Part shown: piece by piece, positions 31,066-64,000 of the stretch | How the letters are laid out: each line of letters starts with the position of its first letter | Position numbering within the stretch: the first letter of the stretch is position 1 | Assembly (NCBI GenBank): GCA_965178125.1 | Contig: OZ237746.1 | Coordinates: 248,001 to 312,000, forward strand | Length of the DNA stretch: 64,000 nucleotides | Source: Bilabrum cf. latius | Taxonomy: Eukaryota | Direction: 5' to 3' | The notes under the pieces: model-generated | The model's database searches: none | Seen by the model: the letters and a program-made list of their open reading frames with translations, nothing else | What the model was told of the DNA's origin: nothing | Position numbers and translations under genes: made by a program

Positions 31066-31680
31066 CGTTAGATCTATTTGCTAGGCCTTAGGTTCTGATG
31101 ATCTTGCCGAGCCGCTCGTTGGGCTGCCGATGTCGACAGTGAGGTGAAGCAGCACGGCATCTCCTAGCTCTGTTAGCACCTTGCTATGCCAAGATGGCAA
31201 TTCTTGCGCACGCGATTCGAAAAAAAATCCATAATGACCTTGACTGCAGCTTCAGTTTACATTATCTGCGGTTTTGGCTGTATAGAAAACGATACATTGG
31301 GTGCTCATTGTTCTCGATCGGCGATCCGATAACAACAGGCATCAAGTGACAGGATCGTAAATTTGGAGAGTCAAATAGCTACAATAGTATATGTACAATT
31401 GGTTTGTACAGATCGTTGCTATCGTCTTACCTGCAGGCTTATGCAAGAAGTGCAAAGAAGAGATTACCCCCCCCGCTACGGTAATAAATAAATTTATTCC
31501 CTTCGGTTAAGGATGATTAACATCATCAATAGTTCCAGTCCATCAGAGCTAAAGCTCTTCAGTCCGTTCCACTCCTTTTGGAGCTAGTCGCTCCAAAAGT
31601 CAAGGTGATACTCTTCATACTGCTACTTCATATAACTGCTTTATCCTTCTAATTATATAAAATCAATTTAATATAAAACT

Positions 31681-31809
31681 CTATACGATGACCATATCCA
31701 TAAATTGCGTATTAGTATATGTAAGTTCTAATCAAAACGTGGATGTAGCCCTCTTGTGAAGGTGTTATGGGACTCTAGCCATTTTCTAGCCAAAAGTTCC
31801 ATCACTTTA
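31681..31809 (+). repeat. Dispersed ~130-bp non-coding repeat with inverted arms, copy 1 (others at 33011-33146 and 46291-46425)
   Basis: Shared blocks ATACGATG, ATATCCAYAAATTGCGTAT, AAAAYGTGGATG and AGTTCCATCACTTTA at near-constant spacing. Confidence 0.9.
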
Positions 31810-32172
31810 TGGGACTCCATTATTCAACCTTCTAAACTACCTTCATTATACCCCCTTATCCTCGCTTATACCTTCACAAATGGAACAAACGCGCAACAGC
31901 AACTCGCTACACTCGTCATCGTCAAAATGAACCTGAACCTGAATATTGGAGTTCAGCATTTCTTAGGAAATATGAGGGTCTAACCAACAGGATTTAATAT
32001 TAAAGTTTAAACCTTTATTAAGGGTGTATATGTTTTTAAGTATTAATCTATGCCTATACATCACATAACCCCCTTCATAACCCTAGCCTATAGGCAGGGA
32101 TAACCCCCACATAACCCCCCCACCTCTAAGCGTTTTTTTAAAACTCAAAAATTATAACTTAGTATTATAGAT

Positions 32173-32943
32173 ATGAACTTTAATAATTATGTCATTGAAA
32201 ATCCCGTCCTAATGAAGCAGATTTATAAGGCTACAGACCATATTACGGATAATACACAGAAAATTTTAGAGACCATTACTACGTATGTAGATTTAGGTGG
32301 TAAGTTTTCAAAACCTAAATTAATTAATAAAAATATAGTTAGTGATATTAAAGAGAAAAAAGCCGTCAAAAAACCCAAGAAAGAAGAGAAACAGAAGATA
32401 CAACACGATAATAACGACCAGCTTGAAATTAACCAAACATACATTCTAGATAAATTTAATGACTATAAACCACAGAATAATAAAATTTATAATGATGTAG
32501 ATGATTTACAACCGCCAGAATTAATTAGATAGACCGCAATAGATGAAAAATTAACCGGTATGGAGCCTGACAGTGAAAGTGAAATAAACAGCGTTAGTAC
32601 CGAACAAGACTAGATAGAAGCAGAAAGTGATGATGAAATGATACCTGAGGAAGAGAAACAAATAATAGGAGACCTGGAAAGGCTAGAAGACGGAGACTAT
32701 AGGTATAAAGTGTCCGTAAATGGAAATGATGTATTTTTTGGTGAAATTAATTTACCCGATGTAGAGGCTCTTAAGAAATAGTTTAGCCCTCGTAAATTAC
32801 AAATTATGATTTGTAAAATTAAAAGAAATTTTAATATTAATAATAGCGATGATATCAACAGCCCTGAGTTTTGGAATAGCCGGGTATATTTGACCCTTGA
32901 TGTGAAGGCCGAACACGAAAAACTACAAGATATCTATAATTAA
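32173..32943 (+). CDS. Viral hypothetical protein (256 aa); acidic middle, C-terminus resembling a degenerate Tlr6F-like domain
   Basis: Reads through TAGs to TAA 32941-32943; YKVSVNGNDVFFG...SPEFWNSRVYL resembles the C-terminus of 42484-43191. Confidence 0.65.
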
Positions 32944-35850
32944 AAGCCCCTACAACTTAATAAACGGGCTAGAATTTAATAAAATATTTTAATATAACCG
33001 CTATATTAAAATCTATACGATGGCTATATCCACAAATTGCGTATAATTATATAGTATTTCTAGCAAAATGTGGATGTAGGGCCTCTTGTGAAGGTGGTAT
33101 GGGACCTTAAGATAATTTTAAAAAATAGTTCCATCACTTTAGAAGGTGTTAAAATACACCATTCATATCACAATCTATTTTTTAGGGCTAAATGGCAAAA
33201 ATCACCTTTTACCTTCATTAATTATTATAGCCCCTTTAAGCCCTCTATAATTAAATATGGCGTTTAAAATAGTTTAAAAATATATTTCTAATAATATATA
33301 TAGAAAATGAATAATAAAAACCTTGTAAGTTTCCCCATCAAGCACAATCAAAAAATACCCGATGTTAAAAGTTGGCGATATCTCACCAAACCCGAACCTA
33401 AACGATTTAATAATCAGAATATGGCTATTATCACCGGAGAAATTAATAATATAACCGTGTTTGATATTGATTCATATAAATGGAGCGATAAGAAGGAGCA
33501 TTTATTCATCAAGAAATTTTCAGATGACTTTGTGAAGCGGTTCAACACATTCACGGTTAAAACAGCGGGTGGAGGGTATCATTTATATTTTAAATATGAT
33601 TAGAATATATTAACTACCACCAATAGAGATATTGACGTTGATATTCGTAATGATGGGGCTTATGTAGTGGCACCACCAAGTGGCATAAATGGGTCAAAAT
33701 ACGAAGTTATTAATAATGTAGAAATAAAAAAATGTCCTAAGGAGCTTTATAAATTTTATGAAAAGTATATTATTAAATCCTCTAAGAAATCCAACGTAAA
33801 AGGGGCGAGTAAAAGGATATCAAAAATTGATAATCAAGATGTGAATAACTGTATGATGAAATTCATTCTAAATGGTAAAGACTGGTCAATTATATTAAAT
33901 AGATTAGATAAGAAATATTTAAATAATTATAGTGATTGGTATAAAGCAACCCTAGCGAGTAAATATTTAGGATTTAAGAAGGAATGGTAGGAGTGGAGCA
34001 AGAAGGGCAATAAATACGACTACCACAAAAATAACAAGGTGTGGAACTCTATCCATTATTTTGATAAGTTAAAAACCTTTAATTTAGTTAATTCAATAAT
34101 TTAGAATGATAAAAGTTTAAAGGCATTTGTGAAGGATAAGTATATTTCAAAGTGTTATTATCGTCCTTATGACGAGAATATTAACGGGTATACAGAAATT
34201 AATAAACCTAAGTTAGATGATATAGAGAAGCCCGAACGCTTTTTTAAATATGAATATAACTATGTGGTAAAAAGTGATACAGGAACAGGTAAAACAACAG
34301 CATTTAAGAAGTATATTAAACAGGTTCAAACGCCGTTCTTATCCATTGTGTCCCGTGTATGTTTAGGCACAGAGCAATACGAGAGCTTTTTAAATGAAGA
34401 TATTAAATGTGAGTTCTACCAGAATAAAGATTTTGATTTTGGATAGTCTCTTATTATTACGCCGGAAAGTATCCCCCAAATTGTGAATTATGATTTTTCT
34501 AAATACATCGTATTCTTGGATGAATTCAATAGCATTATAGAGCATATATTAAGTTCTACCACGATGAATAAAAATAGGGTTCTTGTATTATTTATTATTT
34601 TAAAAATGATAAGGACGTGTAAATAGTTTATTGCTGTAGATGCTGACATATCCCAGATAGCGATGAAATTTTTAAAATGTGCTGGAGTAGAATTTAGCTT
34701 CATTAAGAATAAATATAAGCATTTTAAGGACGTAAAAGTATATTTTGAAAAAGACCAATAGAAATTTTACGATAAATTAAAAAGTGAAGATATATTTATA
34801 CTGGCGTGTGATAGCAAGAAGAACGCAGATACATTTTATAAAATGTTATGTAAAGATGGTATAGAGGACGTTAAATTAATTACTAGTGATTTATTACCTG
34901 ATGAAGATGTGAGCTTAGATAAATATGATAAAATTATATTTAGTCCTAAAGTCATTTACGGATTAGATAGTGTAATGGAACGCCCAGTGTATGGATTATA
35001 TAAAGGAAAAACGATTCTACCGCCGTAGATGATGTAGCAACTGGCAAGATGTAGAAATCCCGAATATATGAATATATATTTTGAAGATGTAAAATCCATT
35101 TATCCAAGATATGAGAATTTAAAGGAGGTATAGACGACCTTAAATATGGAAATTAACGCATAGACAGATTTATATACTAAATTAGAAAAATACGAAAAAA
35201 GGATAATGTAGGAGAATGATATTGACATTGATATTTTTGAGGGAGAAGATGATGAAGAGATAGCCCATAAAGCAATGATAGAGGCATCATATAAGGTTTA
35301 TTTACCACTCAAGAAATTATATAATTTCAAATGTGATACATACGAAACAAATAAATATATTCATTTATAGCTTATTCTTAAAAACAGGGGTGCCGATGTA
35401 TAGGTGGATAAGGAATTACCACAACGAATGAATAAATAGCAGATGAAAGAGGCGACAATGGAGATACTACAAGAAAAGATTGATTCAGTTGATGTAGAGA
35501 ACGACCATATAAAAAGAAGAATTGAAATTTTAGGGCTACCAGAGACAGCCATAACGGAGGATATTAAAATGTTATTAATTGATAATTACAAATTAATGAA
35601 TTATTTTAATTATGCTAATTTCAAGAGAAAAGATAAATATAAACTAATGACAGAATTAATGATCCTAACGCCGGATGGGGTTCGGTGTTGATGCCAGAGT
35701 GGGAGCGCGTGAACGTCTCGTTGGGTTCCGATGGCGGTTGCGACCGGGAAGGTGCGACCAAGCCAACGGATTGCTTGCGATGACGCGCATACCCTCTCTG
35801 TGTTCAGGAGAGGGGCGGAGATTGGGTAATTTCACCGACTGGCAGCTTCG

Positions 35851-38800
35851 ATGCACTCATCCCCGCCACCGGTCGACGCTCTACCCGCTCATCAGCCACC
35901 CCGTGAACCTCCTGTCTCATCTTCTGCCTCACCGCAGCCTGCGTCTTCAATTGACCCAGTTTCACCGGGCGCAGGCACGGCAGTGGACTCCGCGGTCGGT
36001 CGCTCGCAACCAGTGGAGAATTTGTAGCGTGAGGCCTCTGCACCTTCAATCGCTGCAATTCGAATGCAGAATTGGTTTTCTGATGATTTCTTGGCAACGT
36101 TGACCTCGATCTTTCGCCAATCCGCGTTCATGCCGCGGTTTTGCTAGGCTGACGCGCTTCATTTGGACGCTAGCGGCCGCGATTTCGCTGCCGAACTGGC
36201 CCGTGCCCTGTTTGGTCAGGCTGTGACGAGAGCCAAGATTGAATCGGCTATTTTCTCGTTCACGAGCCGGCTTCATGCAGCTCTGCCGATGAGCAATGCT
36301 AGTTTTGGGAAGTTTGATGCGTCCAACTCGGAGTCGTCTGCTGCAGGCGGACGAGACAAGTAGGTACCATCTAGCGAGTTACTATGCACTATTTACTCGG
36401 CTATTTCCTTTGCTTTAGGCTGTGTGCTTGTGCGGGCTGCTTGCGTGCATTCGACGGCGTCCTTGCCGTCCTGGTTGCCGCAGGGCAGCAGCTCGTGGTA
36501 GTGTCCAGCATCACTAGTGCCCGATTGGAAAACCTTAGGGCAGGTTCGCAATGATTTTCTTCGTTTAGTTAGTGCTTCCGGGGCATCATCTGCATCGGCG
36601 TCCAGACTAGAGGTGGTGTTTGCCGCTGTGTGTGTGATACCACGCGGAAGTTCAGCTTTTGAGATGCTCTCATCCCATGCTTGGCGCCATACAGGCGAAC
36701 GCTGTGACGTTGAGATTCGTGACCTTGTTGGGAATGAGATTCCATCTTGCTCTTCTGGCGACTGCATGCGTCTCCTACAATTGCTGCATCCGTGGGCCAC
36801 TGAGGCATGCAGATCAGGCGAACCTGGCCTCGTGCGCGGACTGCTACAGGGAGTCCAGGCTGACATGCAGGCGCCGTCCCGTCGAGCAGCACTGTCCCGT
36901 CACTTCGACCCCCGCGGGGGCAGTGGAGGCCGGGGCAGTGGAGGCGGGGGCAGTGGAGGCTCCAGGCACAGCGGGGGTGACAGCGACCAGCCCAGTGCCG
37001 ATCGTGGCGGAGGTCGACACCGTCGAGGCCGTGGACGTGGCGGTGCAGGCCAGCAAGGTGGCCAGCACCAGCGTGCGGACCGGCAGGACGGGGGCTCCAC
37101 CAGGAAGTCCAAGGAGCCTTCACCTGACCCCCCCCCACGAGGTACGTCACGTCAGAGCCAGCCCAGCACTCCAACACCAACACTGCCGCAGGGGCGTACG
37201 CAGACTACCACCACATCGGACGCGTGTGCTGCTTCCACACCACCTGTCACGTCAACGCCCGCGCTTCACCCAGTCCTGGTGGCCCTAGCGCGCCCTAAGC
37301 GACCGCAGCGGCCGCCCACGGCGTCATCCACGAGGCTGCCAGGTAGGACGGACATCTCTCCAGCATTCGTTGACTGGGCATATCCAGCTCCGGATCCAAG
37401 CCATGAGTGGGCAGGGACGACAGCACCCTCCGTCGAGGACTTCATACAGCGAAAGGACGATCACCAGCGTACCAGAGAATGTCCCGGCGAATTCGTGGAG
37501 GCTCCAGCTGCGACGTGGGACCGTGAGCGGCTCCACCTGAAGGTTCACGACGACCCGCTGGCATTCACGCCACGCAAGTACTTCGACAAGGTGCCTCGCT
37601 AGACTGCAACACTGCGGACCCGGCGGGAGGTTCTGTTTGGCGGCCGCACACCGAGGAAGGCCCCGTCCCTTGCCGAGTTTAAAGCCCTCCCACGAGTCGA
37701 GCGTGTACTGGCAGCACTGAACTATGGTTGCCCCCTAGCCATCGTGGACGAGGTGCCCAAAGAGCACGATCTAGACTACAAGGACCGTAAGCTGTCTCCG
37801 GAAGAAAAGTGGGAGATCGCCTGCGAGATCGGGCGCTCCATGCGGGCTGGCGAGCGTGACTTCGTGTCACCCAAAGATTTCGACACAGCCCGGGCCCGGC
37901 CGCTGGTGATCCCCAAGAAGGACTCGACAAAGCTACGGTTCCTTCAGGACTCCTCACTCAAGGTGAACGGCCAGCGTACCGGTCTGAACAAGGCCATCGA
38001 CTACAGTGCAGCCACGCCTGTGCAGCAGACGAGCAGCATGGACGTGCTGCGCTCGGCAGCCGCAGCAGTTCGATCCTGCCCCAAGCGTGCCAGCGGATAC
38101 GTCGTCGACATTTCCTCGTACTTTCGGGTCCTGCCGGTGGCAGTGGAGGATCTCCAATACAACCTGATCAAGCTGCCCGACGGGCGCATCGTGCAAGATT
38201 TCAGGCTCTCTATGGGCAGCTCATCATCTCCCGCATTCGCAACTACGATCAGTTCGGCTTTGGCCCAAGCCCTCGAGGAACAGTCCATTGGCAGGGCCAT
38301 GCGACCCGGACGGAGACACAAGCAGAAGCAACGACGCCGGAAGCAGCAGCACGCCAACGCCCAATCCAGCACGACGGACCAGGCGCCCCAGGCGAACTCG
38401 TCAGCAACGTCCACCCCGCCTGCCGCTAGCACGACAACGGGACATGTCAAGACGGCCCAAGACTAGTCCCGCCATTGGTAGGTCGAAAATGAGGTGTTTG
38501 TAGATGACTTTGCCTGCCTCGGCGGAGATCACGAAGTCGATGCATGGGCAATTCGAGCCATGGGGCAGCTGGACTCCACAAACTTCCCCGTCAGCATCTC
38601 GAAAGCATTGAAGCAAGGGGCCCCAGCCCCGGTATTCGAGTACTTGGGCCTCACCTACGACTTGATCAAACACGAGGTGCGGTGCCCTAAGGACAAGGCC
38701 AACGACGTCCTGCGCAGACTGCACGAGGCACTCACGACGAAGGGGATGCTGCTGTCTAGCTTTGAGACCTTGGTCGGCAAGTTGTCCTTCCTGTCGGGCG

Positions 38801-40386
38801 CACTTTATGGTATGCGCGGTGCTCTACGTCCCCTGTATGACGCCAAGGGCTGGGCCCTTCACAAGTAGGCCAGCCGGTCACGACCAGGTGAGGTGTGGGT
38901 CCCCACCTCCTTTGTGTCCAAGGGTGGCTTCACAGTTGGGGAAATCCTCGAGGGATTCCAGGTGGCTATCCAGCGCAAAGGCGGGCGCAGTTTTCCGATG
39001 CGGGGCACCATTGACTGTCCCATCCTTCGCACTGATGCGTCGGTGACAGGCTACGGCGCCGAGCTGCTTCTCCACGACAAGGACGGCAACATCACTTCGC
39101 ACACCGGCATCCAGGGCACTTGGCCGCATCGCCTAGAGGCGAAGGATGTAGCGGCGGCAGAACTTGCAACATGTTTGTTGGCACTGGCGCATTGGCGACA
39201 GCACCTGCGTGGACGTGTGGTGCGTTTGTGGTGTGATAATGATGCTTCCGTGTAGCTGATACGCTACGGCAGACCCAAGAGCCACATCATGGCAGCCTTA
39301 CTTCGCCCTATCTTCGTACTGCAGACAACGCAAGATGTGCAGATTCACGTGAAACACATTCCTGGCGAGGACAACGTCGTTGCGGACGCTTTGAGCCGCG
39401 GCTCACAGGAGGCATACACGCACCTGGACGCGGTGTATCCGGTCAACTGTCCCACGCCGATCTGGAACACCTTGTCCAAGCACGACCATTTCACGCTGGT
39501 GGCCACTCTGGACTCAGTGGGTTGCGCACGGCGTGGGGGCACTTCGACAACTTCCTCACGTGGTACGACATCGACCGCAGCTTCATGGACGGGCATCTTC
39601 CAGCAGCTCGCAGACTCTTCGCGTTCAGGCTCAATGCAGCGCTCTCGAGATTCGCAGTCTTCTTAGGGGAATGTTCGCCTCTCAGTGGCGGCACCATCGC
39701 TACATACACCAGAAATGCCTAGCGAGTCGTCATCGAGTCCACAGGAGCGTGCGGCGTCCCACGGTCAAGCTAGCTCGACAGCATCCTCCGGTACTACCAC
39801 AAAGCATCGCCATCGGCGCACCCGTTGCGTCGATCTTCAGCCCCACTCCGCGCAATCCGACGGTGTTTCTCGACAGCCGGTTGCAGCACAACAGAGTAGG
39901 CTGCTCGGGCAGCTGTCTGTCTCTGCTTCTGTGGGGGCCTCCGGCTGGGAGAGCTCGTCGGTGCGTCCAGACGACAAGCCGGCCTCCAATGGCAGCAAGT
40001 GCAGTTCATCACGCGAGACGGACGCATCCATGGTGTTGCCATCCGCCTGGGCCTCCACAAAGCCGACGGCCCAGCCAAGTTCTCCATCCAAGCCGCAGAG
40101 CCCATCGCAGTCCATTGCAGAGCCGGACGATGGGCAGTCACAGGCAGCAGGTTCTGCGGCGTGCGAGCCTTCGTGGCGTGGGCAGCAGCGAGCCACGCCC
40201 CAACTGCAGGCGCAGACGAAGACTACGCCCGGTAGCTGGCGCTCAGCTGCCCCACGTCAGGGCCAGTCTTCGTGGCGAACACGAAGCCGATCGTCAAGGC
40301 GCAGGTAGTACGGGCGCTCCGCAGCTTCTGCTCACGAGAAGTTGCAGGAGCGGTGCACGGACATTCCATCCGCATCGCGGCAGTGA
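35851..40386 (+). CDS. Ngaro Gag-like + reverse transcriptase + RNase H polyprotein (single frame, ~1511 aa)
   Basis: ORF fragments 36163, 36517, 37744, 38494, 38893, 39289 and 39685 are all in one frame, joined by TAG. RT: KLRFLQD, YVVDISSYF, LSMGSSSSP, FVDDF, EYLGL. RNase H: TDAS, AAEL, WCDN, HIPGEDNVVADALSR. Ends TGA 40384-40386. Confidence 0.85.
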
Positions 40387-40580
40387 TGTGTTTGGACCGT
40401 GCTGGGGTCGCCTTCGAGGTCATTAGGCGATTTGGCAGATGGAAGTCGGCATCTGCATGCGAGGTGTACTTGCGGGGCGTCAGGGAAGGCTTGCCTCCTC
40501 TGGAGCTCGGCGGCAGGAGCCTCGATTTGAACAGGCCAGTGTGGGTGCTGGCCAGCGCGCTGCGGCTGAACTTGGAGTGA
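39243..40580 (+). CDS. Ngaro tyrosine recombinase (start undefined; overlaps the pol frame)
   Basis: Frame open from 39243 to TGA 40580 with two TAGs; catalytic signature GGLRLGEL (R), LHKAD (K), HSIR (HxxR), GRWKS...VY (W, Y). Confidence 0.88.
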
Positions 40581-41565
40581 GCCACACAGCCGCAGCGTAC
40601 AAGACATGGCGGTAAGATTTGGCGGAGTAGTGCACGTGCTCTTCCCAGCCCCGGTCAGTCCGGTCAAGGGTCGCGCACAGGCACAGCTTTGTCAGGTCTT
40701 GCCATGTCTGATTGTTAACGAGACTAGGTTGCGCGTACACTCTGGCATCATGATCCTAACGCCGGATGGGGTTCGGTGTTGATGCCAGAGTGGGAGCGCG
40801 TGAACGTCTCGTTGGGTTCCGATGGCGGTTGCGACCGGGAAGGTGCGACCAAGCCAACGGATTGCTTGCGATGACGCGCATACCCTCTCTGTGTTCAGGA
40901 GAGGGGCGGAGATTGGGTAATTTTTGCCCACCCTCCCAACCCCCTCCTCCTCGGCGGAGTAGTGCACGTGCTCTTCCCAGCCCCGGTCAGTCCGGTCAAG
41001 GGTCGCGCACAGGCACAGCTTTGTCAGGTCTTGCCATGTCTGATTGTTAACGAGACTAGGTTGCGCGTACACTCTGGCATCAAGGATAGAAAGGATTTTA
41101 AGGATGAGAAAGCAAAAAGTACAAAGAATAAAATAATCATATTGTAGGAGATGTTATAGACGCTTAAATTGAATAAATTTGATTTAAGTTATACACGTAA
41201 AAATGAGAAATCCATTAAATATATAGAAATGGGTAAAAGATATGTAGAAGTAAGCGGGGCGAGATTATAGAAGCCAATAGAAACCGATAGTGAATTACAC
41301 GGGGCAATCGTAAAATTATATAAGTAGTTATTTGGAAATATCAAAACCTCCTGGAGTATGGGGAATAAAAAGGATAAAAAGGATAGAGAATTAAGAATTA
41401 AATTCACCAAGGAGAAAGAATTATTTGATGAAGTTTATAAATATTAGTATCCCGAAATGAAGGACGTATACAAGGAATCCAACGAACGATTAGATTAGAA
41501 TATTTAATACCTTTTTTATGTGTTTAAAATAACTTAAACATTATATATTTATATAATATATAGTG

Positions 41566-41868
41566 ATGAGCGATATTTAGAGTTCAAGCAATACATAGGA
41601 ACAACCAAAAATTAATTATATGTAGGAATATTACAAAACAAACAAAGACAAATGGAATAAAAAATATTTAGCTAGAGGAAATGAAAAAGTTAAATGCGAT
41701 GTGTGTGATTGTTATTATAGAAGGAAGGACAGAACGAGACACGAACGAACGAAGAAACACCAAAAAAATCTCAAAGAACCAAAAAAGGATATACTAGAGG
41801 AATATATCAAAAAACTTAATCAAACCCTGCTTAATAGCGGGATTAAACCACCGGAGATATCAATTTAA
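41566..41868 (+). CDS. Small C2H2 zinc-finger protein (100 aa)
   Basis: KCDVCDCYYRRKDRTRHERTKKH; visible only with TAG=Gln; homologous to 60487-60759. Confidence 0.8.
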
Positions 41869-41908
41869 ATTTATCTATTTATTTATTTTTTATAAATAAA
41901 AAGATTTT

Positions 41909-42430
41909 TCAACCTTTAATAACCATCCAATTAGCGGACCAATCATTAGAGGAATTACCACCCGTTAAATGAATCGTAAATCCATCGGTTCCTGCTACTA
42001 CGTGGGAAAATTCAACCGGCTCACTGGCGGGGGTGATTGTAGTAATAAAAACCAAATCACTAGAAGTCATACCCGGAACACTAGCGAATTCAGTAGCACC
42101 TCCACCACTCCAATTTACCCTTCCTTTATGCGCTACGGTGTTATTTGCTACTACTTCACCTTTTACGGTTAAATCACATTCGTGACCGTCTTCATCAAAA
42201 CTCATAACTAAACCAGCAGATGCGGTATTGGCACCGAATCGTAAAGCTTCACCCGAAGTGATGTAAGAGATACCCTTACTGTCAAGATGTAATCCTGCGT
42301 TGCTAACAACTACATCACTACTATTCACAACAGCATTTACATATAGACCACTACTATCTAATCTACCAGTTGCGACATTCTTACATTGAATAGATATATC
42401 ATTAGGTTGCGATAATCTTGCTAAGCTCAT
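41909..42430 (-). CDS. Putative virion fibre/structural protein (173 aa)
   Basis: Beta-rich; N-terminal half homologous to 54245-54736 (LRFG.N.ASAG...S..E.G..CD....G); function inferred. Confidence 0.55.
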   Translation of the reverse strand: MSLARLSQPNDISIQCKNVATGRLDSSGLYVNAVVNSSDVVVSNAGLHLDSKGISYITSGEALRFGANTASAGLVMSFDEDGHECDLTVKGEVVANNTVAHKGRVNWSGGGATEFASVPGMTSSDLVFITTITPASEPVEFSHVVAGTDGFTIHLTGGNSSNDWSANWMVIKG

Positions 42431-42483
42431 TTTTTGTATATATAAATAAGAGAAAAACTAAAACTTATATCAAACCTATAATA

Positions 42484-43191
42484 TTAAACTTTCATTAATT
42501 TTTTAGCTCTATCTACGGCGTCCATAAAGCTATCTTTTAATGTTGGTTCATTCCATAATACAAACCTAGACCAAAAAGCGGGGGATTTATAGTCTTTAAA
42601 GTCTTCATTTATTGAATGTCTTTTAATATAATTTTTCTTTTTACGGTTTGCTTCCTTCTCTCCATCTTTATTATAATATTGTATAAAGTCCATATAAGGG
42701 GTACCATCATTCTTAATTCCACCAAAATGAACAGTAAACAGAATATTATTACCTTGAACTACTTTAATCATATATTTTTTATTTGATTTAGTTGATTTAT
42801 ATAAATTAAAAACTGGTTTAGGTCTAAATGATTTCACGTGTCCGTTATTAAATTTTTCCTTCATTGCTTCCTCTATTTCTTCCGTGTCTAATTCTCCAAA
42901 GGTTAAAGGGGTCTCTTTATTTATTCTTTTAGTGGGTCTATATATATCTCCTTTTTCCTAATATCCCTTTTCTCCCTTCTAATTCTTCCAATCCTCTAAT
43001 TTCCACCTTCTTAAATTTTTCTATGCTTCATTTAATTTAATTTTATCATATGTCCCCCCTAGTTTTTTATATGATTTAAAGTATGCTAATGAACGATAAG
43101 CTGAAGGCTTTTTATACGTTCTATTTACTTTCTCAACTGCCTGACGCCATAATTTAGGACTATTAATATAACTAGGTATATTATCATTCAT
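42484..43191 (-). CDS. Fusion of a conserved virophage/NCLDV-type domain (KPSAY..RW..E.W..YRPT.RI...TP.T) with a Tlr6F-like domain (235 aa)
   Basis: With TAG=Gln extends from ATG 43191; C-terminal KKYMIKV..VHFG...YMDF...RKKNYIKRH...SPAFWSRFVLW is the Tlr6F-like pattern of PLVs/virophages. Confidence 0.7.
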
Positions 43192-43385
43192 CTATATAAT
43201 TAATAAAATGATAATTTTTTAATAGCGTGAGCCGTTTTCTTTCTATATTCTTCATAGACTCTTTTATTAGTTGGATTCTTCATTAATTTATTTTTTACCT
43301 TCTTTAATGCCTTCTTAATAGCATACTAAACAAAGATATTACTAATAATATTAATCATATATTATATAATTAATAAATATTTAAT

Positions 43386-44885
43386 TCAAAGCATTAAACC
43401 GCCTTTTTTTCCTTTCCTTGATATAATTTCTTCTTTTTCATTTACGACCATTAAATCATTCTATCCGTGGATAATTAATTTCTATCCTTCTTCATTTATC
43501 TATTCTTCTTTATATTCACCTAATTCTTTACCTACTTTAAAATTTAATCTTTTGTTAAATGTGATACTGTCGGTGTGAATTCGTATAATATGTTTAGCGT
43601 TGTTCTTATTCACTTTCTTCATCAATCGTTGTCTTCCATATGCCAGAATAAAAGGTTTCAATTTTCCCCAGCTATATTTAAAGGGTACTTTATGTTTCAA
43701 ATGATAAATAAATTCTCCGTCATTATCCATTTCTACACGGTCAATATCAAATTTATCTATATTTATTTTTTTATCATCTTTTGATGTAATTGTCTTTTTA
43801 GAGGAACTACATAATTTACCCCATAATGAATTTAATATTTCTTTTGCTAGATATGATTTGCTTTTTAATTTGTAGAACATTGAGACATAGGATTTAAAAA
43901 GTGTTTCACCTTTGATATATTTATCATAGGTCATAAAATTAAATTCGTCGCTTGACATCTCTATCTCACACCCATATTTAACAAACATATTCATATCAGT
44001 AAAGACATAATAAGTAAATTCATTTTCAAATACCTTCATCATTTGAAAGATATTCGGGTCGCATTTTCCACGGCTTACCTTACATTTATAAATCCCTATT
44101 TCGTTTTTATTATTAATCTATTTATTATCAATTGTTTTATAAATAGGATTTCCATATGGTAGTAGTGAATTAGATGACATAATGGCGGGGTAATGACTAT
44201 TTATATCGTAGGTGATAAACTCCTCATATTGTCCCTTCTTGTGATATTGAATCCCGCCACGCGTTGAACCTTCAATAAATACCGCTTCCTCTGGGGTTAT
44301 ATCTGGTGGGCTATCTATCATCATATTAAACATTGTAAAGAAATGAAGGGCTGTTTGTCTGATTCCATATTTCATTACATCTAATGATGGGTTCTCGTCG
44401 TGTAATTCATCACTTGCTATACTCAGCCTTAAGCTCCATTCTTTGATATCTTCATCCTCTGGGCATTCGTGAATGGTGTAATGAAGATAATATTTCTTTG
44501 AATGATAATCGGTTAGGCTCTCAACTCTATATTTATCTTTTTCAATTATTTCGGCTTTATCGGTTAATTTAACAACCATAGATTTATGGCACCGCACAAA
44601 TAAAGGTTTCATCCTCTAGACGGCTTTAAATGAACCATCTTTATATTCTAAACAAACCCTTTTAAAACTCTTTTTTTTCCTACTTAGATAATAGACCTTT
44701 ATATCGTCTTTCTCTCTAATCTCTATATCCATTTTTAAACCTGAAACAAGTTTATAAAGGTTCTTTGTAGTTATGGGCTTACCGTTAAATACCTTTTCTA
44801 GATACTTCACGGATTGAATGGGGTTATCATACTTTTTACCAAAGCATATATTTAATTGATTTAACACATTTTCGTAATTTATCAT
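43386..44885 (-). CDS. polB: Short family-B DNA polymerase (499 aa; protein-primed type likely; no recognisable exonuclease motifs)
   Basis: TRGG, YDINSHYP (motif A), KEILNSLWGKL (B), RIHTDSI (C); one frame through TAGs to TGA 43386. Confidence 0.85.
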
Positions 44886-44904
44886 TTCCTATAGTATATT
44901 ATAT

Positions 44905-45137
44905 TCGATCCGATGGCTACCGGCGCCGTTCATGTTAAATGAACGGAGCAGGAACTTTCTTCAAAAATTACCCAATCTCCGCCCCTCTCCTGAACACAGA
45001 GAGGGTATGCGCGTCATCGCAAGCAATCCGTTGGCTTGGTCGCACCTTCCCGGTCGCAACCGCCATCGGAACCCAACGAGACGTTCACGCGCTCCCACTC
45101 TGGCATCAACACCGAACCCCATCCGGCGTTAGGATCA
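44905..45137 (-). mobile_element. Inverted Ngaro remnant: repeat A plus a ~60-bp tail unlike repeat B
   Basis: 44964-45137 is the reverse complement of A2 (including GGGTAATTTTT); 44905-44963 is GC-richer than the virus and contains the hairpin CCGTTCAT-GTTAA-ATGAACGG. Confidence 0.9.
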
Positions 45138-45194
45138 AATATATTTTTAAGCCATTTTAAACACATATTATAAAGTTTAAATTATAAAATGTAA

Positions 45195-45536: not shown

Positions 45537-45628
45537 TTTTATATATATACTATAGATATTTTATTTTTAAGCCAAATACACGCGTTTAAAATGACTTAAA
45601 GATTTTATTTTATTATAATATATATAGA

Positions 45629-47048: not shown

Positions 47049-47200
47049 TCTCTATATAATATCTATATAATATAATCTTTAAGTCATTTTAAACGCGTTA
47101 TATTATAAAAAAGGGGCTTAAAAAATAGACACTATTGATATAGATGATTATATTAATTAATATTATTAAAATATTAATTAATTAGACCGGTTAAATAGTT

Positions 47201-50752: not shown

Positions 50753-51037
50753 ATGAAGCTACATACCTACGATTTTGAAAAGGTTGTTGAGAATTTTCTA
50801 TTTAAAGCACCCTCAAGACGCAAGAATAAGAAGTATGATGTTTTTGACGAAAATGATGAATATATTACATCGTTTGGTGATAGGCGGTATTAGCAATTTT
50901 ACGATAGAATAGGGTATTACAGCCATTTAAATCATTTAGATACGGACCGCCAATTTAGATACTTCAAACGACACGGTATCGAAGTAAAACCAAGAACCCC
51001 AAAGTTCTTCTCACATTTTTACCTTTGGAGTTCATAA
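50753..51037 (+). CDS. Tlr6F-like small protein (94 aa)
   Basis: SRRKNKKYDVF...ITSFGDRRYQQF...RYFKRH...PKFFSHFYLW. Confidence 0.72.
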
Positions 51038-51568
51038 ATGACACGTCAATAAATACACTAATTCATCAGGATTTAATGTATGTTTCTTACAAACCTTATC
51101 CACCCACTTTTTATACTAATTAGCGTTTTTCGCTCTATTCCATAACCTTACTATACAATGTCTCCCGCAGGTTGCTATATCCATTCCATCCGCCTAAAAC
51201 TAATAGGGGTTATAGTCAATTTTATAAGGAGAATGATACATTAAATAAATTAACTCAGGGTCTTCATAAAAACGTTTCCGGACGCTTTCACTCATTGTAT
51301 GCTGTTGTCTATCAGGACGAATTCCATAACTGTCAAAGAAGTATACAGTACCCTTACGCTTAAATAAGCACACCCAATGACCAGAGTTTATTTCTTCTTG
51401 GTATAGAATGATACAACAATTACAACGACTAAATAATCCATCAATACTATTGTACTATCCTAATTCTGTATATGGAACGATGTTTACCGACGTAGGAAGA
51501 AATGCCTTAATATTTGGTGGAGTTTTGAGGAGAACACGAATATCACTATCGCTAAGAGCATAATCCAT
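51032..51568 (-). CDS. Virion maturation cysteine protease (adenain/Ulp1-like clan, 178 aa)
   Basis: SGHWVCL (His), YFFDSYG (Asp), Y(TAG)F(TAG) (oxyanion Gln region), ATCGRHC (Cys); absent from the ORF track because of TAGs. Confidence 0.92.
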
Positions 51569-54736: not shown

Positions 54737-54792
54737 TTATACTTTAGAAAAGTAATCAAACCCACCCCATAATTATAAGCCTCTATAGTAAA

Positions 54793-55902
54793 ATGAGTTC
54801 TCCAGACCGATTTTACATTACCGCAAACATACGAAATAACGAAGATACTTTCCAACCAGCGACCTATAGCGAAACCCGCAAGTAGCCATTATTAGATAAG
54901 GATGTTGGTGATTATACGATGTCAGTATTCCGGTTTTCCATAAGCACCAATTCAATACCTTTATGGGTTCCACACATAGAAACCGATAAAGTGAAAAATC
55001 CAACTTCAAATCCTAATCAAACAGTGTATAGAATAAGCATTACAGATGAAGACGGAGTAAGTTTGTGGACCTCAAGCATTCAGTGGAGACCCTAGTTAAC
55101 AGGGGAAAACCAACCCCCTTTTTCCAATCCTATGTAGTTTGTTCCTTATTATTATATGTATTCCGTGTAGCATTTTGTTGATTTATTCAACGAAACCCTA
55201 TAGAACGCTTTGTCAGCGGATATTACATCAGTTCCGGTTTTACTCTTTAAAGATGGTAAATTTTCTTTAGTAGCAAACCCCGATTACGACGAGGAAAACT
55301 CAGGACAGAAATTTAAATTAGTGTTGAATGAAGCCCTTAACGAACTGATGACGGGTTTTCCTATGGAACGAATGGATATCCAAGATGACGACTTATACGC
55401 AAGCATTCTATTCAAATCCTTAGGAACGAATGTTTAATTTGATGATGGCTCTTCTGTTGGAAAATATGAACCTTAGGCATACTTCGAGGGAAACCCAACG
55501 GGAGACTACAGATTAATGATGACCTAGGAACGAGGGAGTTTAGTGTAGTTTTAGATTTTTCGCGGAATAGTTTTCACATCTTCAAGTCTTCCAGTGAGGA
55601 GTGAGGCAATATCCTAGAAATCCGCCTATGGACAATCCACTAATACAGTTCAAAATTCAGGTTCAGGGACCGAGAGTTTATTAGTGGATATGGATTGTGT
55701 ATTAGATGATACTGAAACAGTTAATTAGTAGGTTCTTCAATACCAGCCCCATATTCTCCACGAAATTGATTTTTTAGATACACATTCAGTAGATAGGATT
55801 TAGTTTAATCTATATTGGAAAGACAATTATTCAAATCTAAGACCTCTTTATTTACGCCACGGAAGTGTGAGTGTGAAGTTTTTATTTAAGAAACGGAAGT
55901 GA
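54793..55902 (+). pseudogene. Minor capsid (penton) protein, ~369 codons, with one in-frame TAA at 55435-55437
   Basis: YSETRKQPLL..DYTMSVFRFSISTNSIPLWVP at the N-terminus; IVFTSSSLPVRSE and LYWKDNYSNLRPLYL...SVKFLFKKR at the C-terminus; immediately upstream of MCP; frame continues unshifted past the TAA. Confidence 0.8.
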
Positions 55903-56007: not shown

Positions 56008-57774
56008 ATGTCATTGAATACATTTGCCCTTCAGCCAGTCAAAGTATCTCCCGCAACATTAGACGTACAACCAAAGCCTTATGAAGTTCAAGAAGGTTAT
56101 GAGAACCGAACGTTTCGCAGATACGCTCCATCTGGTTCAGCCGGTAATTATAATTCAGGTGTGAATTGGAATATTAGTATGCCTTCAGGTGTAGGTTTAT
56201 GCCGCCGCGCATACGTGTCTTGCCGTTTTTCCATTACCTTTTCCGTGAATAATCAAACCGCAGGTGCTCTCGTACCATTTACACCAGATTACGATGCTCC
56301 ACGCTCATATCCACTTAATCGCTCCATTGCAACACAGACAGTTGGTATCAATAACATTCGCTTTACTTAGAATAACGCGGAAATAATGGACGTAGTGTCC
56401 CATTGTTTAGATGATGATGTTCATCGTGTGAATTGCCTTGATAGTGTGTATAGACGCGACAATGTGCCTTCATACGCGATGATGAGTTAGGCTACAAATA
56501 ACGCTCTTGCTTCGTATGAGGACGTGCTTTAGGACCAACCCGCAAGAGGAAGTGGATTTTATAACTTGGTTCAAATGGATAACACTCCAGTGCCCGCAGG
56601 TCAAACGCAAAATCGTGTTCTTGTCTTTGAATGTACTGAGGCGGTTCTTTGCCCACCTTTCCATTACGAAAGTAAATAGGAACAACCAGCCATTTTCGGT
56701 TTAGAAACTCTTTCCTTGGATATCAATTGGTCGCAACTGAGTAGAACCGTGTGGTCTCGTATTCCACAATAGGACTTAACTGCTACCGTTTAGTCGGTAG
56801 ATGTCCAGAACCCCTATTTATACCTTGAATAGATTACCCCTAAAACAGGGTTTGTCCTTCCAAAACAGGTATCCTATGATATTTTTGAAATGACTTCATA
56901 TACTCAAAGCTATGGTGCAACAATCAGCGCAGGAACAACAGCAACTCTTACGAACAACAATATTAAACTTAGCAATTCAGTTCCATCTCGTCTATTTGTG
57001 TTTGCCCGTCGCTCACCTACCAGCGTCTCAGTAGATTAGGGAAACACATTCCTTGGAATTGAGGGAATATCTATTGAGATGAATAACCAAAGTGGATTAC
57101 TCGCAGATGCTTCACCTCAGTAGCTATGGGACTTATCCAGAAGCAATGGACTTGAATAGCAATACGCGGAATGGGCTATGCGTAAATTCGGGGATAGGGT
57201 GCTATCAGGCGCAATTCTCTCCATCGACCCCGCCAAGGATTTGAGCCTAGATGTAGATTAGACAAATGGAAGCAACGGCTCTAACCAATTGTCTATCACC
57301 CTACGAGTGAAGAATAATGATGTTGTAGATTACCAAAATGTGTAGTGTGTGGTTGTGGGATTGTACGAAGGAGTAATGAATGTGATTGATGGTTCTAAGA
57401 TTGAGTATTAGCAGGGTGTCATCTCACGGGCAGATGTTCTTTCCGCCTCTAAACTACCCGTAGTATATGAAAGTCAATTATCAGGACTACACGGTCGCGG
57501 TCTTGGGAAAAAGATTAGACACGCCTTAAAAAAGTTCGCACACAAAACCGCTGATTGGGTAAAGAAAGGCAATCTCAAAAAAGTATTAAAGGATGGTAAG
57601 TAGGTATTTGACACCGCTAAAATGGTGGGTGAAATGGCTGGTATGGGACGCCAAAGGAAACCCCGAAAAACTACCAAGAAAGGCAAGGGCTTAACAGGTG
57701 CCAAGTTGGGTTCTGGATTAACAGGTGGTAAATCTCTCTCTCGCAATCAATTACTCGCTATGCTCCAAGCTTGA
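56008..57774 (+). CDS. Virophage-type double-jelly-roll major capsid protein (588 aa)
   Basis: APRSYPLNRSIATQTVGINN, VPSRLFVFARR, NNQSGLLADAS, LSIDPAKDL; basic Gly-rich C-terminal extension; intact with TAG=Gln; ends TGA. Confidence 0.9.
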
Positions 57775-60759: not shown

Positions 60760-60814
60760 TTCAATCTTTTCTAAAAATTTTCATGCCGTTCCGCCGGCAA
60801 ACTGCGGTGTTTGG

Positions 60815-62656
60815 TCAATCTTTTTTAAAAAGTTTCTTCTTACTGTGAATAATTTGACATTCACCTGATTGCTCCAACTTCATACCCCCAAGGTTCGTTG
60901 ATAACTTTAGAGGTAATTCTTTCTCACTAATGAAACCATCCGTGTTGACATAGTGAATGTTTTCAAGATATGGCTCAATCATTTTGGACAATTTACTTCG
61001 TCCAAGTCCAGTCAGAAAGGGGCCCATTCTTGCGTAGGCTGTTTTGTAATCGTACTCTTCGTCATATAGTATACCCGATACAAGTCGTCCAGATGCTTTA
61101 GGATACGCGTTCTTTAATTGTCTAAAATTCATACAATCACCATCTCGGAGTGTTTTTGTGATTGTGTTTTTCTAACATAGAGAACCCCAAATATTATTTA
61201 GTATCTCCTTCGCACACTTCAATCCCTATTTTTTATAACCGTACAATCGCTCAATCATCGTTTTGAACAGTCCATTTGCCTTCACCCTTGTTGTCTCATC
61301 GTAAAGTAAAGCGTTGGCTTCACCGTCTTCAATCAGAGACACCTAAGCGCCCGTCTCAATCGCTCGGTTAATGTCATATTGGGTATAATAATTGTTTTTT
61401 CTTTTTTGTACCAATTTAGAATTGATATTTTCAATATGTACCCTAAAAATGCCGTACGGATAGAAACCACTTGAAGGTACTTCAAATTTTACGAACTTAC
61501 CCCTTCTAACCGGAAATGTAAATGTACCCTTCATAATACTTGGATAAAATGAGTTAATATCGTACTGGTATGCGTTTTTTAATGTAGTATTCTTGTTTGC
61601 CCAATTCAATCCACCACCCGAGGCTTTAGAAATCCATAGTGCTTCAACTTGGTCAATCGGGTCGGCAGGGTAAAGTTTGGAAAACTTACTGAAATACGAC
61701 TTTACAAATAGGGATGTTCTAAACATAAATCGTGATAAATCCATATATCCACCCGTCTCCTTCGCTAATGCCCTTACATTTTTCATCCGTTCTTCGTGTT
61801 TTGTTCTTAGTTCTTCCTTGGACTTGACTTCAAAGATGAATTTATCCTTGGAAACTGATGTAATGCCTTCTGATTGATACTCACGGTCTCCATCAAATAG
61901 TAAATAAGAATTCTCGGATTGATACAAGCGGGTAATTAGCGTACACGGTTCTTTAGACGGCGGTGTAAATAATTCTTTCTAACTAATGGGGGGAACATAC
62001 TTGTAATGCCCATTTGTTAATGAAACAGTTAGAAGACGGTCAAAATGAGTTTTTCCAGATGTGTATTCAAAGTCGCCTACAACATGAATGCGTACTTGAA
62101 GTTCGTCTTCTATCTCTGGTATTCTTCTGTAATCAACGGGGTCATCACGTCCAATTTTCAAGAGTTCTTTGAGGTCGGACTTCGACAATCTTTTAATAGT
62201 AGTTTTCCATTTGCCTTTTGCGCTCTTTACATTTACCTTACGACCAACTGAAAAAGGAAAAGCCTGTTTTATAGCGTTATATAAACAATCGTTATGTTCG
62301 TCAGCACCGCCTTCTGGTTCTGGCTTTCTAATAAGCAGTAGTTCAAAAGAATTCAATTTTCTATATTCGTCGTCATCGTCGTCTTCGTAGCCCGCCCATA
62401 AACTATCTTGATTTTCTAAATCATCTGTAGTAATCCAAGTGCTTCGTGTTCGCCAACCTGTATCTTGGTAATTGATATTCACCTTAAATTTAAAGTCATC
62501 AAACGGATTTTCACCACCATCGTCGTAATCACGAATAAATTCCAAGACATTTTTTACGGTGATAAGGTCCTCGCTCTCAAATCGCATACTCCATATTGGT
62601 TTCCCATTAAGACGCAATTTGGTTCTTTGGGGTTCCGTAAAATCGATTTCGGGCAT
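60815..62656 (-). CDS. polB: Short family-B DNA polymerase (613 aa; protein-primed type likely)
   Basis: ASGGG, YDINSFYPSIM, KEILNNIWGSL, YVNTDGF; three track ORFs in one frame, joined by TAG; ends TGA. Confidence 0.87.
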
Positions 62657-62713
62657 TCTATAGTATCTATTATATTATAGAATACGATAATTATTCTTAA
62701 GGTACGAACTCAC

Positions 62714-64000
62714 TCACTTCTCAATTTTACAGAGGAATTTGGAAAGTTTTCCTTTTTTGTTCTTTGGTGGGTTCTCTTTTATCCATTTTTGAATAGCGAT
62801 GCTATTCTCAACACTCAGCTGTTTCTGGATTTTCTTATGGACTTGTTCCGTCGGTGTAATCTCCTTTTCTAATTCCAACTATTCAATCGTTTCCTACTGC
62901 TATGCGACTTGTTTCTGTAGTTCTCTAATCTACTCTCGAAGAACATCTACCTCGGATTTTGCTTTTTCCATCTCAGCAGAATGACGAAGTGCCTAAAATT
63001 TAGATTGGAAGCCTTTTAGTAAGTCTGCGTGTTTCACATTAAATTCTTGTTTTCTCTATTTGTTCATCGTTGAATGAACACCTACCTCTGACAATAGTGT
63101 TTTAATCATAGGTGTACCAAGGTTCTTCACTCTACCGTTCAGTTCCTGCTTTAGATAATTGCGGAATTCCAAGACTGTCATTTTAAAATCTCTGCCTTCG
63201 TCCAGCCACTCTTCTTTTAGAATTTTTAAAACCGGATGTGCGCCATCAAGAATTCCTTTGTAAAAATTCTTTGATTTTGGTGCGAATTGTCCTGTAAAGT
63301 CTGGTGATTTATCATAGATTTCAACCAATAACATATAAAATGCCTTAGCCACTTCTGGATTTTCTGTAAAACGTTTTAGTGTTGTAAAGTATTCTTTGTC
63401 TCCTTTCTTTGATGTATTCACATCCAAAACACAATATCTACGGATTTCCTCGGTGATTTTGATTGGACTATCATTCGTATCAATAATTAGATTGAATGTA
63501 TTCGGACGACTTTCGGATTTGACAAACTTCTCATTACAGGAAAAGTGTTTTTCCGTAATAAGATTTCTTAGTGTTGCCTACATGGCGTCCCAAATAGTTG
63601 GCGAGGCTTTTGGAATTTCATTAAAATTGACTAATAGTTTCCCGTCCAGAATTGAGTTGAAGGCGTCGGGTTGAAGCATCTTGTGTGTAAGCGTCTATAG
63701 TGTAAGGGTATATCCGAGTAGTTTTCTCATAAGGAAGGTAATAATCATCGATTTACCAGTTCCTTGTGGAGATTTCAAATATAGTGCTGTTCCCAACTTC
63801 TTTCCGCCCACAATAACGTGAGCCAACCATTTCATCACAAAATCACACTATTCTTTGTCTTCTGAAGTCCACACCTTCTGGATATGTTCATAAATCATAG
63901 TCGCGCCTGCTTTTGCGTCTTCGGATAAATCCTCTATGTTTCCACAGTTTTCCCGTGTAAGTATAGGTGAACCCATAACGTTAATTGTTTGATTGTCGTA
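62714..64000 (-). CDS. Superfamily-3 (D5-like) helicase, 5'-truncated by the window edge
   Basis: FVMKWLAH, LYLKSPQGTGKSMI (Walker A), LVNFNEI (Walker B), IIDTNDSPI, RRYCVLDV; coiled-coil tail; ends TGA 62714. Confidence 0.88.

Follow-up and report, generated by a model that had tools for sequence, protein, structure and literature searches.

The 64,000-nucleotide stretch analyzed here, hereafter the window, comes from Bilabrum cf. latius (assembly GCA_965178125.1, contig OZ237746.1, positions 248,001 to 312,000 of the forward strand) and holds two virophage-type genomes and a Ngaro-type retrotransposon next to an array of host genes. Virophages of the Sputnik and mavirus kind make up the class Maveriviricetes. 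Base composition divides the window into a GC-rich part (0.51-0.69 GC over 1-32 kb) and an AT-rich part (0.30-0.42 over 32-36 kb and 42-64 kb), the latter enclosing a GC-rich (0.60) island at 36-40 kb. When translated with the standard code, the AT-rich part yields short open reading frames (ORFs) only, while long ORFs appear once TAG is read as glutamine (TAG=Gln). Both virophage-type genomes and the Ngaro are very probably written in the host's own UAG=Gln code, with the recoding inherited by the virophage lineage. The features of the virophage and retrotransposon part are given below.

31467..49150, no strand: element 1, a broken and truncated virophage-type genome of about 31% GC, placed by the GC shift (left end approximate)
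33307..35658, plus strand: element 1 primase-polymerase/helicase, first 784 codons, 14 in-frame TAG; the gene resumes in frame at 41082-41507
35659..41081, plus strand: Ngaro-type (DIRS order) retrotransposon with a putative tyrosine recombinase, 5423 bp, 60% GC, which splits the element 1 primase-helicase
43386..44933, minus strand: element 1 protein-primed DNA polymerase B (PolB)-like gene, 6 in-frame TAG, its 5' end overlapping a solo Ngaro repeat
44906..45137, minus strand: solo inverted Ngaro A repeat, 100% complementary to 40751-40926
47703..49148, minus strand: element 1 major capsid protein (MCP), N-terminally truncated, without a start codon and with about 140 residues gone
49151..49639, no strand: spacer between the elements, also in sequencing run X7, where it adjoins GC-rich DNA
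about 49.6 kb (50.6 kb at the latest) to past 64 kb, no strand: element 2, virophage-type, running off the window
49630..50570, no strand: tandem repeat with a 436-bp period, about 2.2 copies (repeat families D1 and D2)
50753..51037, plus strand: small DUF5754-family gene (Pfam DUF5754 3e-6, 27.6 bits, cut-off 27.4)
51032..51568, minus strand: cysteine protease, 4 in-frame TAG, 54% identical to the protease of metagenome locus L003
51758..52663, plus strand: putative packaging ATPase with a P-loop, 8 in-frame TAG, sharing 61% identity with the L003 ORF that adjoins the protease and penton
54793..55902, plus strand: penton (minor capsid) protein, 13 in-frame TAG and one TAA (Pfam V18-19 4.7e-7, 29.4 bits, cut-off 27)
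56008..57774, plus strand: MCP of 588 amino acids, 14 in-frame TAG
60815..62656, minus strand: protein-primed PolB, 4 in-frame TAG
62714..64000, minus strand: D5/DUF5906-type helicase, incomplete at the end of the window, with 9 in-frame TAG (Pfam DUF5906 2.3e-15)

Element 2 is a nearly intact virophage genome with the four capsid-morphogenesis genes of virophages: MCP, penton, protease and a putative packaging ATPase. Its genes follow the order DUF5754, cysteine protease, P-loop ATPase, a 393-residue protein, a fibre-like protein, penton and MCP, and after the MCP come three proteins, a small zinc-ribbon-like protein, protein-primed PolB and the D5/DUF5906 helicase; most of these genes carry 4 to 14 in-frame TAG. 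The MCP matches the Pfam families Sputnik_MCP_1st (1.9e-22, 80.1 bits) and MCP_V20_C (2.2e-27, 96 bits), both with a cut-off of 27. Its AlphaFold model (pLDDT 62.7) finds its best solved fold in the Sputnik MCP (3j26_A, E 1.1e-28, TM 0.61/0.70) and its second-closest in the mavirus MCP (6g43-45, E 3.6e-23), and its best matches in BFVD are the MCPs of the Sissi and Qinghai Lake virophages. The penton is 52-54% identical to three full-length pentons. Retranslation with TAG=Gln and profile searching, a check put forward in the preliminary description of this DNA, gave full-length ORFs with Sputnik MCP and V18-19 Pfam matches above their cut-offs.

Turning to the remaining element 2 proteins, the protease has 2618 homologs at E<=0.001, and among 101 aligned sequences G63, H64, Q125, C134, G135 and D168 never vary, while at least 90% of them keep D79, so that a His/Asp/Gln/Cys active site (H64, D79, Q125, C134) is present. 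It belongs to no named Pfam family and matches nothing in PHROGs; against the PDB, its profile gives weak matches (E 0.15-0.8) such as the SdeA deubiquitinase (0.15) and adenovirus protease (0.72). The ATPase has weak Pfam AAA matches, one weak PHROG match (DnaB-like helicase phrog_243, E 2.4e-4) and no significant sequence match in the PDB. A low-confidence model of it (pLDDT 53.3) ranks the packaging ATPases of Yellowstone Lake virophage 5 (3.7e-14) and Sputnik V3 (1.1e-13) at the top together with the mavirus FtsK-HerA ATPase, with TM values of only 0.30-0.38 for these matches. PolB matches Pfam DNA_pol_B_2 at 1.3e-5 (24.7 bits, slightly under the cut-off of 25.8) and a PHROG DNA polymerase at 2.1e-13; it is 62% identical to the L003 PolB over 605 columns, and the helicase is 60% identical to a 547-residue L003 protein. 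No frameshift separates the element 2 proteins from those of L003. The 436-bp tandem repeat is possibly the terminal region of the element.

A 436-residue gene of element 2 contains three in-frame repeat copies of 54-65 nt (58626-58882) that encode a repeated GVRSTPSRRSQLAQQLKDG peptide including a TAG-coded Gln, and its L003 homolog, at 306 residues, is about 130 shorter. Several small virophage proteins that are otherwise unrelated resemble one another in a basic C-terminal motif (an R/K-rich part followed by ...LRGKG.S...AL..AW...), located in the window at 59804-60445 and 58473-59783 and in L003 at 12494-13414 and 6781-7185, and a GKGLTGG motif near the C-terminus is common to the MCP and the 393-residue protein. 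Such C-terminal motifs could be packaging or protease-processing signals.

Element 1 is a different, more AT-rich virophage-type lineage than element 2. Its right end (49150) is a break inside the MCP gene; a contig of run X2 stops at this point, and a contig of run X7, which has a GC-rich flank of unrelated sequence, begins at 49151. The primase-helicase matches Pfam Prim-Pol (5.6e-16) and PriCT_2 (2.8e-6), and its two pieces align to residues 1-785 and, from 41082, 785-929 of the 933-residue homolog P0172. The PolB-like protein is shorter than its relatives by about 118 N-terminal residues; by BLASTP it is 25-29% identical to the PolB of element 2 and L003, with residues 184-479 falling on 302-597. 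Despite its truncation the MCP aligns by hhalign to columns 144-517 of a virophage MCP profile built from alignment A1 (probability 97%, E 8.4e-11); its Pfam MCP_V20_C match (0.0016-0.0023) is under the cut-off, and it is 24% identical to the L003 MCP over 233 columns. Within its visible part, element 1 yielded no penton, and neither rve nor tyrosine-recombinase genes turned up in the visible parts of the two virophage elements or in 13.8 kb of L003.

The two elements also differ in the motifs near their genes. The window has 18 copies of TATAGTA where 4.6 would be expected, with 14 of them in 50.6-62.7 kb, and GTTTAAAATRDYTTAAA, at element 1 genes, has 6 copies where 0 would be expected; the expectations come from whole-window composition shuffles, which flatter AT-rich motifs. 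A TATAGTA-type motif stands a few bases upstream of many start codons in element 2 and L003. In element 1, a non-coding unit of about 170 nt without an Rfam match is present three times (31669-31835, 33001-33167 and 46281-46446; 61-86% identity), and the intergenic segment 47181-47333 consists of at least six tandem copies of a 20-nt unit (CTTTGRAAAGTATGAACCWA-like). Since runs X7 and X8 hold 49151-49639 without the virophage, the spacer is not virophage DNA. This segment was considered as the empty site of element 1 and rejected, the X7 flank being unlike the left flank in the window.

The retrotransposon has the Ngaro arrangement A1-[ORFs]-B1A2B2, with repeats A1 at 35659-35832, B1 at 40621-40750, A2 at 40750-40923 and B2 at 40953-41082, and with direct repeats that are 100% identical (A 174 nt, B 130 nt). 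Its ORFs (35851-40386 and 39522-40580) match the RNase H-like family RVT_3 (5.7e-6, 26.7 bits, cut-off 21.6) and, under the cut-off of 27.1, Phage_integrase (7.4e-5, 23 bits); the Pfam search gave no RVT_1 match in them. Of the 39 differences listed for the Ngaro copies, 25 leave the protein unchanged in the frame that contains TAG.

Contigs were compared over 35501-55500 in four sequencing runs, X1, X2, X7 and X8, of which the last two carry two other organism codes. Those of X1 and X2 cover all 30 bins of this span. The same two runs also hold a Ngaro-free form, in which 35658 is joined exactly to 41082, and a form free of the solo repeat, in which one T links 44905 to 45138; copies or alleles that lack the interruptions are therefore present. 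In X7 and X8 the Ngaro is present at high depth together with 49151-49639, and the only virophage sequence is, in X8, a 69-nt piece (46288-46356) of the repeat unit of about 170 nt. Contigs only 90-99% alike to the window number 86 of 220 in X1 and 148 of 358 in X2. Collectively, these contigs suggest several diverged copies of the elements, Ngaro included, within the same genomes. There was no RNA run among the sequencing runs that hold window sequence.

The numbers of in-frame TAG, TAA and TGA codons are 61/0/0 in six host ORFs, 15/0/0 in the retrotransposon, 38/0/0 over the 2808 codons of element 1 and 94/1/0 over the 3888 codons of element 2. Because TAA and TGA delimited the ORFs, the zeros are in part built in. 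Read in its two off-frames, the same virophage DNA contains 83-246 TAA and 60-157 TGA. Support that is not circular comes from ORFs that span their homologs end to end and terminate where the homologs do: 588 against 587 residues for the MCP, 613 against 613 for PolB, 301 against 324 for the ATPase and 178 against 184 for the protease. Across 26 ORFs the terminal codon is TAA in 10 and TGA in 16. UAA and UGA are still stop codons, the pattern of NCBI translation table 15.

As the preliminary description had stated, almost every viral gene carries in-frame TAG and ends in TAA or TGA: at least one TAG is present in 19 of the 22 tabulated ORFs of the virophage region, the three without it being 41909-42430, 45629-46174 and 54245-54736. 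Its phrase "fully recoded" was too strong, since CAA and CAG still make up 57% of virophage Gln codons. TAG accounts for 43% of Gln codons in both virophage elements, compared with 14% in the host ORFs and 15% in the retrotransposon. Two of the TAG-free ORFs are the fibre-like genes of element 1 (41909-42430) and element 2 (54245-54736), which are 31% identical and have only 2-3 Gln codons, so that zero TAG is not significant there; their L003 homolog has 381 residues and shares only the first 20 with the window genes.

The meaning of TAG was examined by tabulating homolog residues at window TAG codons, with CAA/CAG codons as positive control and other codons as background. For the element 2 MCP and 8 homologs, Q was present in 32 of 103 residues at TAG, in 58 of 186 at CAA/CAG and in 3.8% of 3885 elsewhere. 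The element 1 primase-helicase with 30 homologs gave 83 of 391, 94 of 414 and 2.5% of 21232, respectively. When eleven element 2 proteins were compared with L003, Q stood at 32 of 79 TAG positions (encoded in L003 by 10 TAG and 22 CAA/CAG), at 42 of 112 CAA/CAG positions and at 105 of 3136 others; conversely, of 43 TAG positions in L003, 18 correspond to Q in the window. Glutamine is thus about as frequent at TAG columns as at CAA/CAG columns and roughly ten times as frequent as at other columns, and the non-Q residues at TAG sites are mostly E, K, D, S or R.

Three invariant glutamines are encoded by TAG: protease Q125 (51194-51196; 100 of 100 aligned homologs), MCP Q384 (57157-57159; 8 of 8) and element 1 primase-helicase Q577 (35035-35037; 30 of 30). 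Within the protease, whose TAG codons lie at 51455-57, 51200-02, 51194-96 and 51116-18, the segment 51194-51202 reads TAG-TTC-TAG (Q123-F124-Q125), which bears out the earlier observation that the Gln expected before the catalytic Cys is TAG-coded. The comparison confirms that the TAGs behave as sense Gln codons and do not represent decay, as had been claimed; their positions are not random with respect to Gln in homologs.

Relatives of element 2 are present in protein and metagenome collections. Among collected MCPs, P0001 is 90% identical, a cluster lies at 61-64%, and distant relatives including P0003 and P0004 lie at 43-47%. In the 61-64% cluster, forms of 587 residues stand beside fragments of 109-150 residues that stop just before the first TAG or start past the last one, and the 587-residue P0013 is the TAG=Gln translation of L003 letter for letter. 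The idea that such a lineage is invisible to standard gene calling thus holds for the fragmented MCPs, though not for the full-length TAG=Gln form also present. The suggested metagenome search for TAG-bearing relatives was fruitful, with in-frame TAG in six of seven loci. The matched MCP parts of these loci, 55-62% identical to the element 2 MCP, contain 6, 6, 6, 3, 3, 2 and 0 in-frame TAG and no in-frame TAA or TGA; the sole locus with zero, L007, spans 157 codons.

Three of the records, L001, L002 and L003, are 95-99.9% alike. In the 13.8 kb seen, L003 has the gene set of element 2 with one block inverted, a uniform GC content of about 0.44 and no GC-rich flank. Between L002 and L003, pN/pS is 0.158 (Sd 142.8, Nd 75.2) and 37 TAG are kept, with one CAG/TAG swap; by this measure, their genes are under purifying selection. 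The existence of TAG-bearing relatives that appear to be under such selection would make the recoding a trait of the lineage and not peculiar to this insertion. A 57-nt unit is found in two tandem copies (start-to-start about 59 nt) near contig ends in L001 (5354-5469) and L003 (13659-13774). In IMG/VR, the single-protein scan gave no relative and the alignment scan only one, a standard-code virophage at 25% identity with no gain from TAG as sense; the "phages" collection contained no match to the element 2 MCP.

The GC-rich part of the window holds the following host genes.

2599..7242, minus strand: aspartokinase / diaminopimelate (DAP) decarboxylase fusion, 1547 amino acids, 8 in-frame TAG
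8265..11156, plus strand: kinesin (Pfam Kinesin 3.9e-74)
11657-17572, 18248-25909 and 26725-31200, minus strand: three armadillo-repeat genes with 18, 21 and 8 in-frame TAG (Pfam Arm and ARM_ARMC5)

The fusion protein matches Pfam AA_kinase (8.5e-38), Orn_Arg_deC_N (6.7e-21) and Orn_DAP_Arg_deC (1.5e-18), and aspartokinase and DAP decarboxylase in the PDB. In the kinesin, the P-loop Gln (YGqTGTGKTHT) is encoded by TAG at 8301-8303, and this residue, number 13, aligns with the Q of YGQTSSGKTHTM and of YGQTGSGKT in solved kinesins. The kinesin motor domain is divided between the overlapping frames 7346-9133 and 8265-11156, the first ORF having the N-terminal 80 motor residues, which points to a short intron or frameshift around 8.2 kb. 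The armadillo-repeat ORFs are open only when TAG is sense. The genes at 11657-17572 and 18248-25909 have almost identical C-terminal stretches of about 230 residues and similar N-terminal domains, and together with the third paralog (26725-31200) they form a tandem array adjoining the insertion site. Since the host ORFs of the GC-rich part need TAG as a sense codon, the window comes from a eukaryotic nuclear genome, and the altered code belongs to the host itself. The earlier proposal that host, virophages and retrotransposon share one code therefore stands, all of them needing TAG as sense. No tRNA gene was found in the 64-kb window or in L001-L008, and no Rfam family matched in the window. 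With a shared UAG=Gln code and no tRNA gene of their own in the window or the loci, the elements would rely on host decoding.

Comparisons with known systems draw on the available parts of the papers cited. The closest architecture is that of the EMALEs and Ngaros of Cafeteria burkhardae (Hackl et al. 2021, PMC8547959). The EMALEs are AT-rich virophages embedded in a GC-rich protist genome, and the Ngaros there are GC-rich, about 6 kb long, arranged as A1-[ORFs]-B1A2B2 and inserted in virophage genes including the primase/helicase, with isolated repeats as well. An AT-rich virophage in a GC-rich genome, a Ngaro in the primase/helicase, solo repeats and upstream motifs are all seen again here. 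The upstream motifs would fit virus-specific promoters as in EMALEs; the TATAGTA copies are at most an indirect hint of replication dependent on a giant virus, and the motifs do not identify a helper. In contrast, EMALEs are mavirus-like and have integrases, whereas here the best MCP fold is Sputnik and the visible part has no integrase; moreover, the available text on EMALEs mentions no variant code, while here every gene set uses TAG=Gln. Halocafeteria seosinensis (bioRxiv 10.64898/2026.07.28.741278) has nested and partial virophages and polinton-like viruses with embedded transposons, and resembles the present locus in its nested, partial, transposon-carrying virophage elements. It differs in a host GC content of 47%, in MULE and LINE instead of Ngaro transposons, and in text that, as far as available, has no variant-code wording, and on these grounds it was rejected as the host of the present elements. 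Literature searches for flagellates or stramenopiles with a UAG-only code turned up none that would match. With Sputnik and mavirus themselves element 2 shares the double jelly-roll MCP, the penton and the cysteine protease, and its putative ATPase would, by a low-confidence model, be FtsK/HerA-like, but MCP identity is only 16-24% and element 2 has 94 in-frame TAG.

Endogenous viral elements (EVEs) that follow a host's variant code have precedents, and in this respect the earlier notion of an undescribed system was overstated. In Streblomastix strix (Bellas et al. 2023, PMC10120064), integrated capsid-bearing DNA elements use the host's table, in which TAA and TAG are Gln, and the authors infer a long virus-host association. 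The differences are that Streblomastix reads both codons as Gln, that its MCPs are of a "Metamonada group" and not of Sputnik type, and that the available parts of the paper report no free environmental relatives or selection test. In Blastocrithidia triatomae (PMC11108086), a recoded tombus-like EVE is likewise written in the host's variant code and accompanies a "locked-in virus" argument, by which a code switch confines a virus; that EVE is an RNA-virus fragment in a host with all three stops reassigned and, in the sections available, comes with no capsid-gene set or virophage biology. An ochre-suppressor tRNA in one metagenomic virophage clade has been read as a hint of host stop reassignment (PMC6905037, available part). 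Bacteriophages with code 15 show the same codon change, TAG=Gln, but there the virus departs from the host code, whereas here the host uses it too. Literature searches on virophages with variant codes or Ngaro returned no report of a TAG-recoded virophage. The present locus is the first case found in which Sputnik-type virophages use a UAG-only code and have free-looking relatives that are under selection.

An alternative to inherited recoding is that standard-code virophages integrated and their CAA and CAG codons then drifted to TAG under host tolerance, in which event the code match would be uninformative as to whether a free recoded virus exists. One transition turns CAG into TAG, only 10 TAG sites are common to the window and L003, and the primase-helicase P0175 (40% identical) and the pentons P0292 and P0293 are full-length in their JGI source, which suggests few or no TAG provided that standard-code gene calling was used there. 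Such drift is nevertheless unlikely. The high TAG share of Gln codons is seen in two unrelated elements, the element 2 ORFs are otherwise intact, and P0001, by its protein sequence only, reads Q at 13 of 13 aligned TAG sites. In addition, L001-L003, without host flank in the parts seen, have kept their TAGs under apparent purifying selection. Pseudogene decay, by which the TAGs would be nonsense mutations in dead elements, could draw on the state of element 1 and on the single TAA in the element 2 penton, but is scarcely credible when the 6696 virophage codons include 132 TAG against one TAA and no TGA, TAA and TGA both abound in the off-frames, homologs have Gln at TAG columns as often as at CAA/CAG columns, the L003 comparison shows no frameshift, and host genes bear TAG as well. 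Recoding driven by a suppressor tRNA of the virophage or a giant virus, giving a code unlike the host's, would parallel crAss-like phages, in which TAG=Gln is known (PMC9523058, available part). It deserves almost no weight, as host genes need TAG=Gln even in the kinesin P-loop and tRNA genes are missing from the window and L001-L008. Very improbable, too, is an assembly chimera in which free virophage contigs were misjoined to host DNA: repeats are abundant and bridging contigs over 31.47 kb fall outside the inspected span, yet sampled words of 27000-36000, which spans the host-virophage junction, are present at 71-85% in six runs of two studies, and a host-type GC-rich Ngaro, found at high depth in virophage-free runs, is inserted in element 1.

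Besides the partly built-in zero counts, several points weigh against a virophage lineage that inherited the host's code. Element 1 is certainly dead, for the Ngaro splits its primase-helicase, the solo repeat overlaps a shortened PolB and the MCP is truncated. The in-frame TAA of the element 2 penton (55435-55437) stands where three homologs have L, H and L; the frame is unchanged on both sides and the downstream part is still conserved, so the TAA would be a recent change or an error, and this copy of element 2 may produce no particles. The earlier statement that the frames are otherwise intact has to be qualified on both counts, with element 1 interrupted and truncated and the penton carrying a stop. 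The window does not reach the right end of element 2, nor any integrase or terminal repeats, and the 31.47 kb junction lies outside the 35501-55500 span of the contig comparison. The metagenome relatives, having no host flank in the 13.8 kb or less seen, could be integrated copies in cells. Shared TAG codons at 10 of the 32 Q-Q sites between window and L003 are not clearly above free codon interchange, and the reading of UAG as Gln by the host is a prediction from sequence comparison.

With these points weighed, the preferred explanation remains a virophage lineage that shares its host's code. The host would be a eukaryote, rich in GC and poor in introns, with ribosomes that translate UAG as Gln and terminate at UAA and UGA, and its gene array would be adjoined by two integrated virophage-type genomes of different lineages, one nearly intact (element 2) and the other a dead, truncated copy hit by a Ngaro (element 1). 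TAG would serve as an ordinary Gln codon in all this mobile DNA, catalytically essential positions included, and the recoding would be an inherited property of a virophage lineage living in UAG=Gln hosts instead of drift after integration. In standard-code cells no TAG-bearing gene of element 2 would be made whole, and the lineage would be confined to UAG=Gln hosts. A giant-virus partner may be soundly inferred, and such a helper, if any, would have to avoid TAG stops. A further step, plausible yet somewhat short of probable, leads to a self-contained UAG=Gln virosphere, with a free infectious virophage lineage and a hypothetical giant virus in protists that have the rare UAG-only reassignment, and with the code acting as a host-range lock. 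This would amount to a three-level parasite system of host, giant virus and virophage, with the Ngaro as a further layer.

For surveys of virophages and protist genomes, a TAG-using lineage that is cut up by standard gene callers would be undercounted. Screens for endogenous viruses need the host code, and here a single TAG-aware translation recovers full-length capsid genes. The sequences may also serve as probes for giant viruses with UAG as a sense codon and allow an antiviral barrier to be tested against a host-range lock. If the recoding is indeed inherited, virophages, and by implication giant viruses too, would be able to follow a host through a change of its genetic code.

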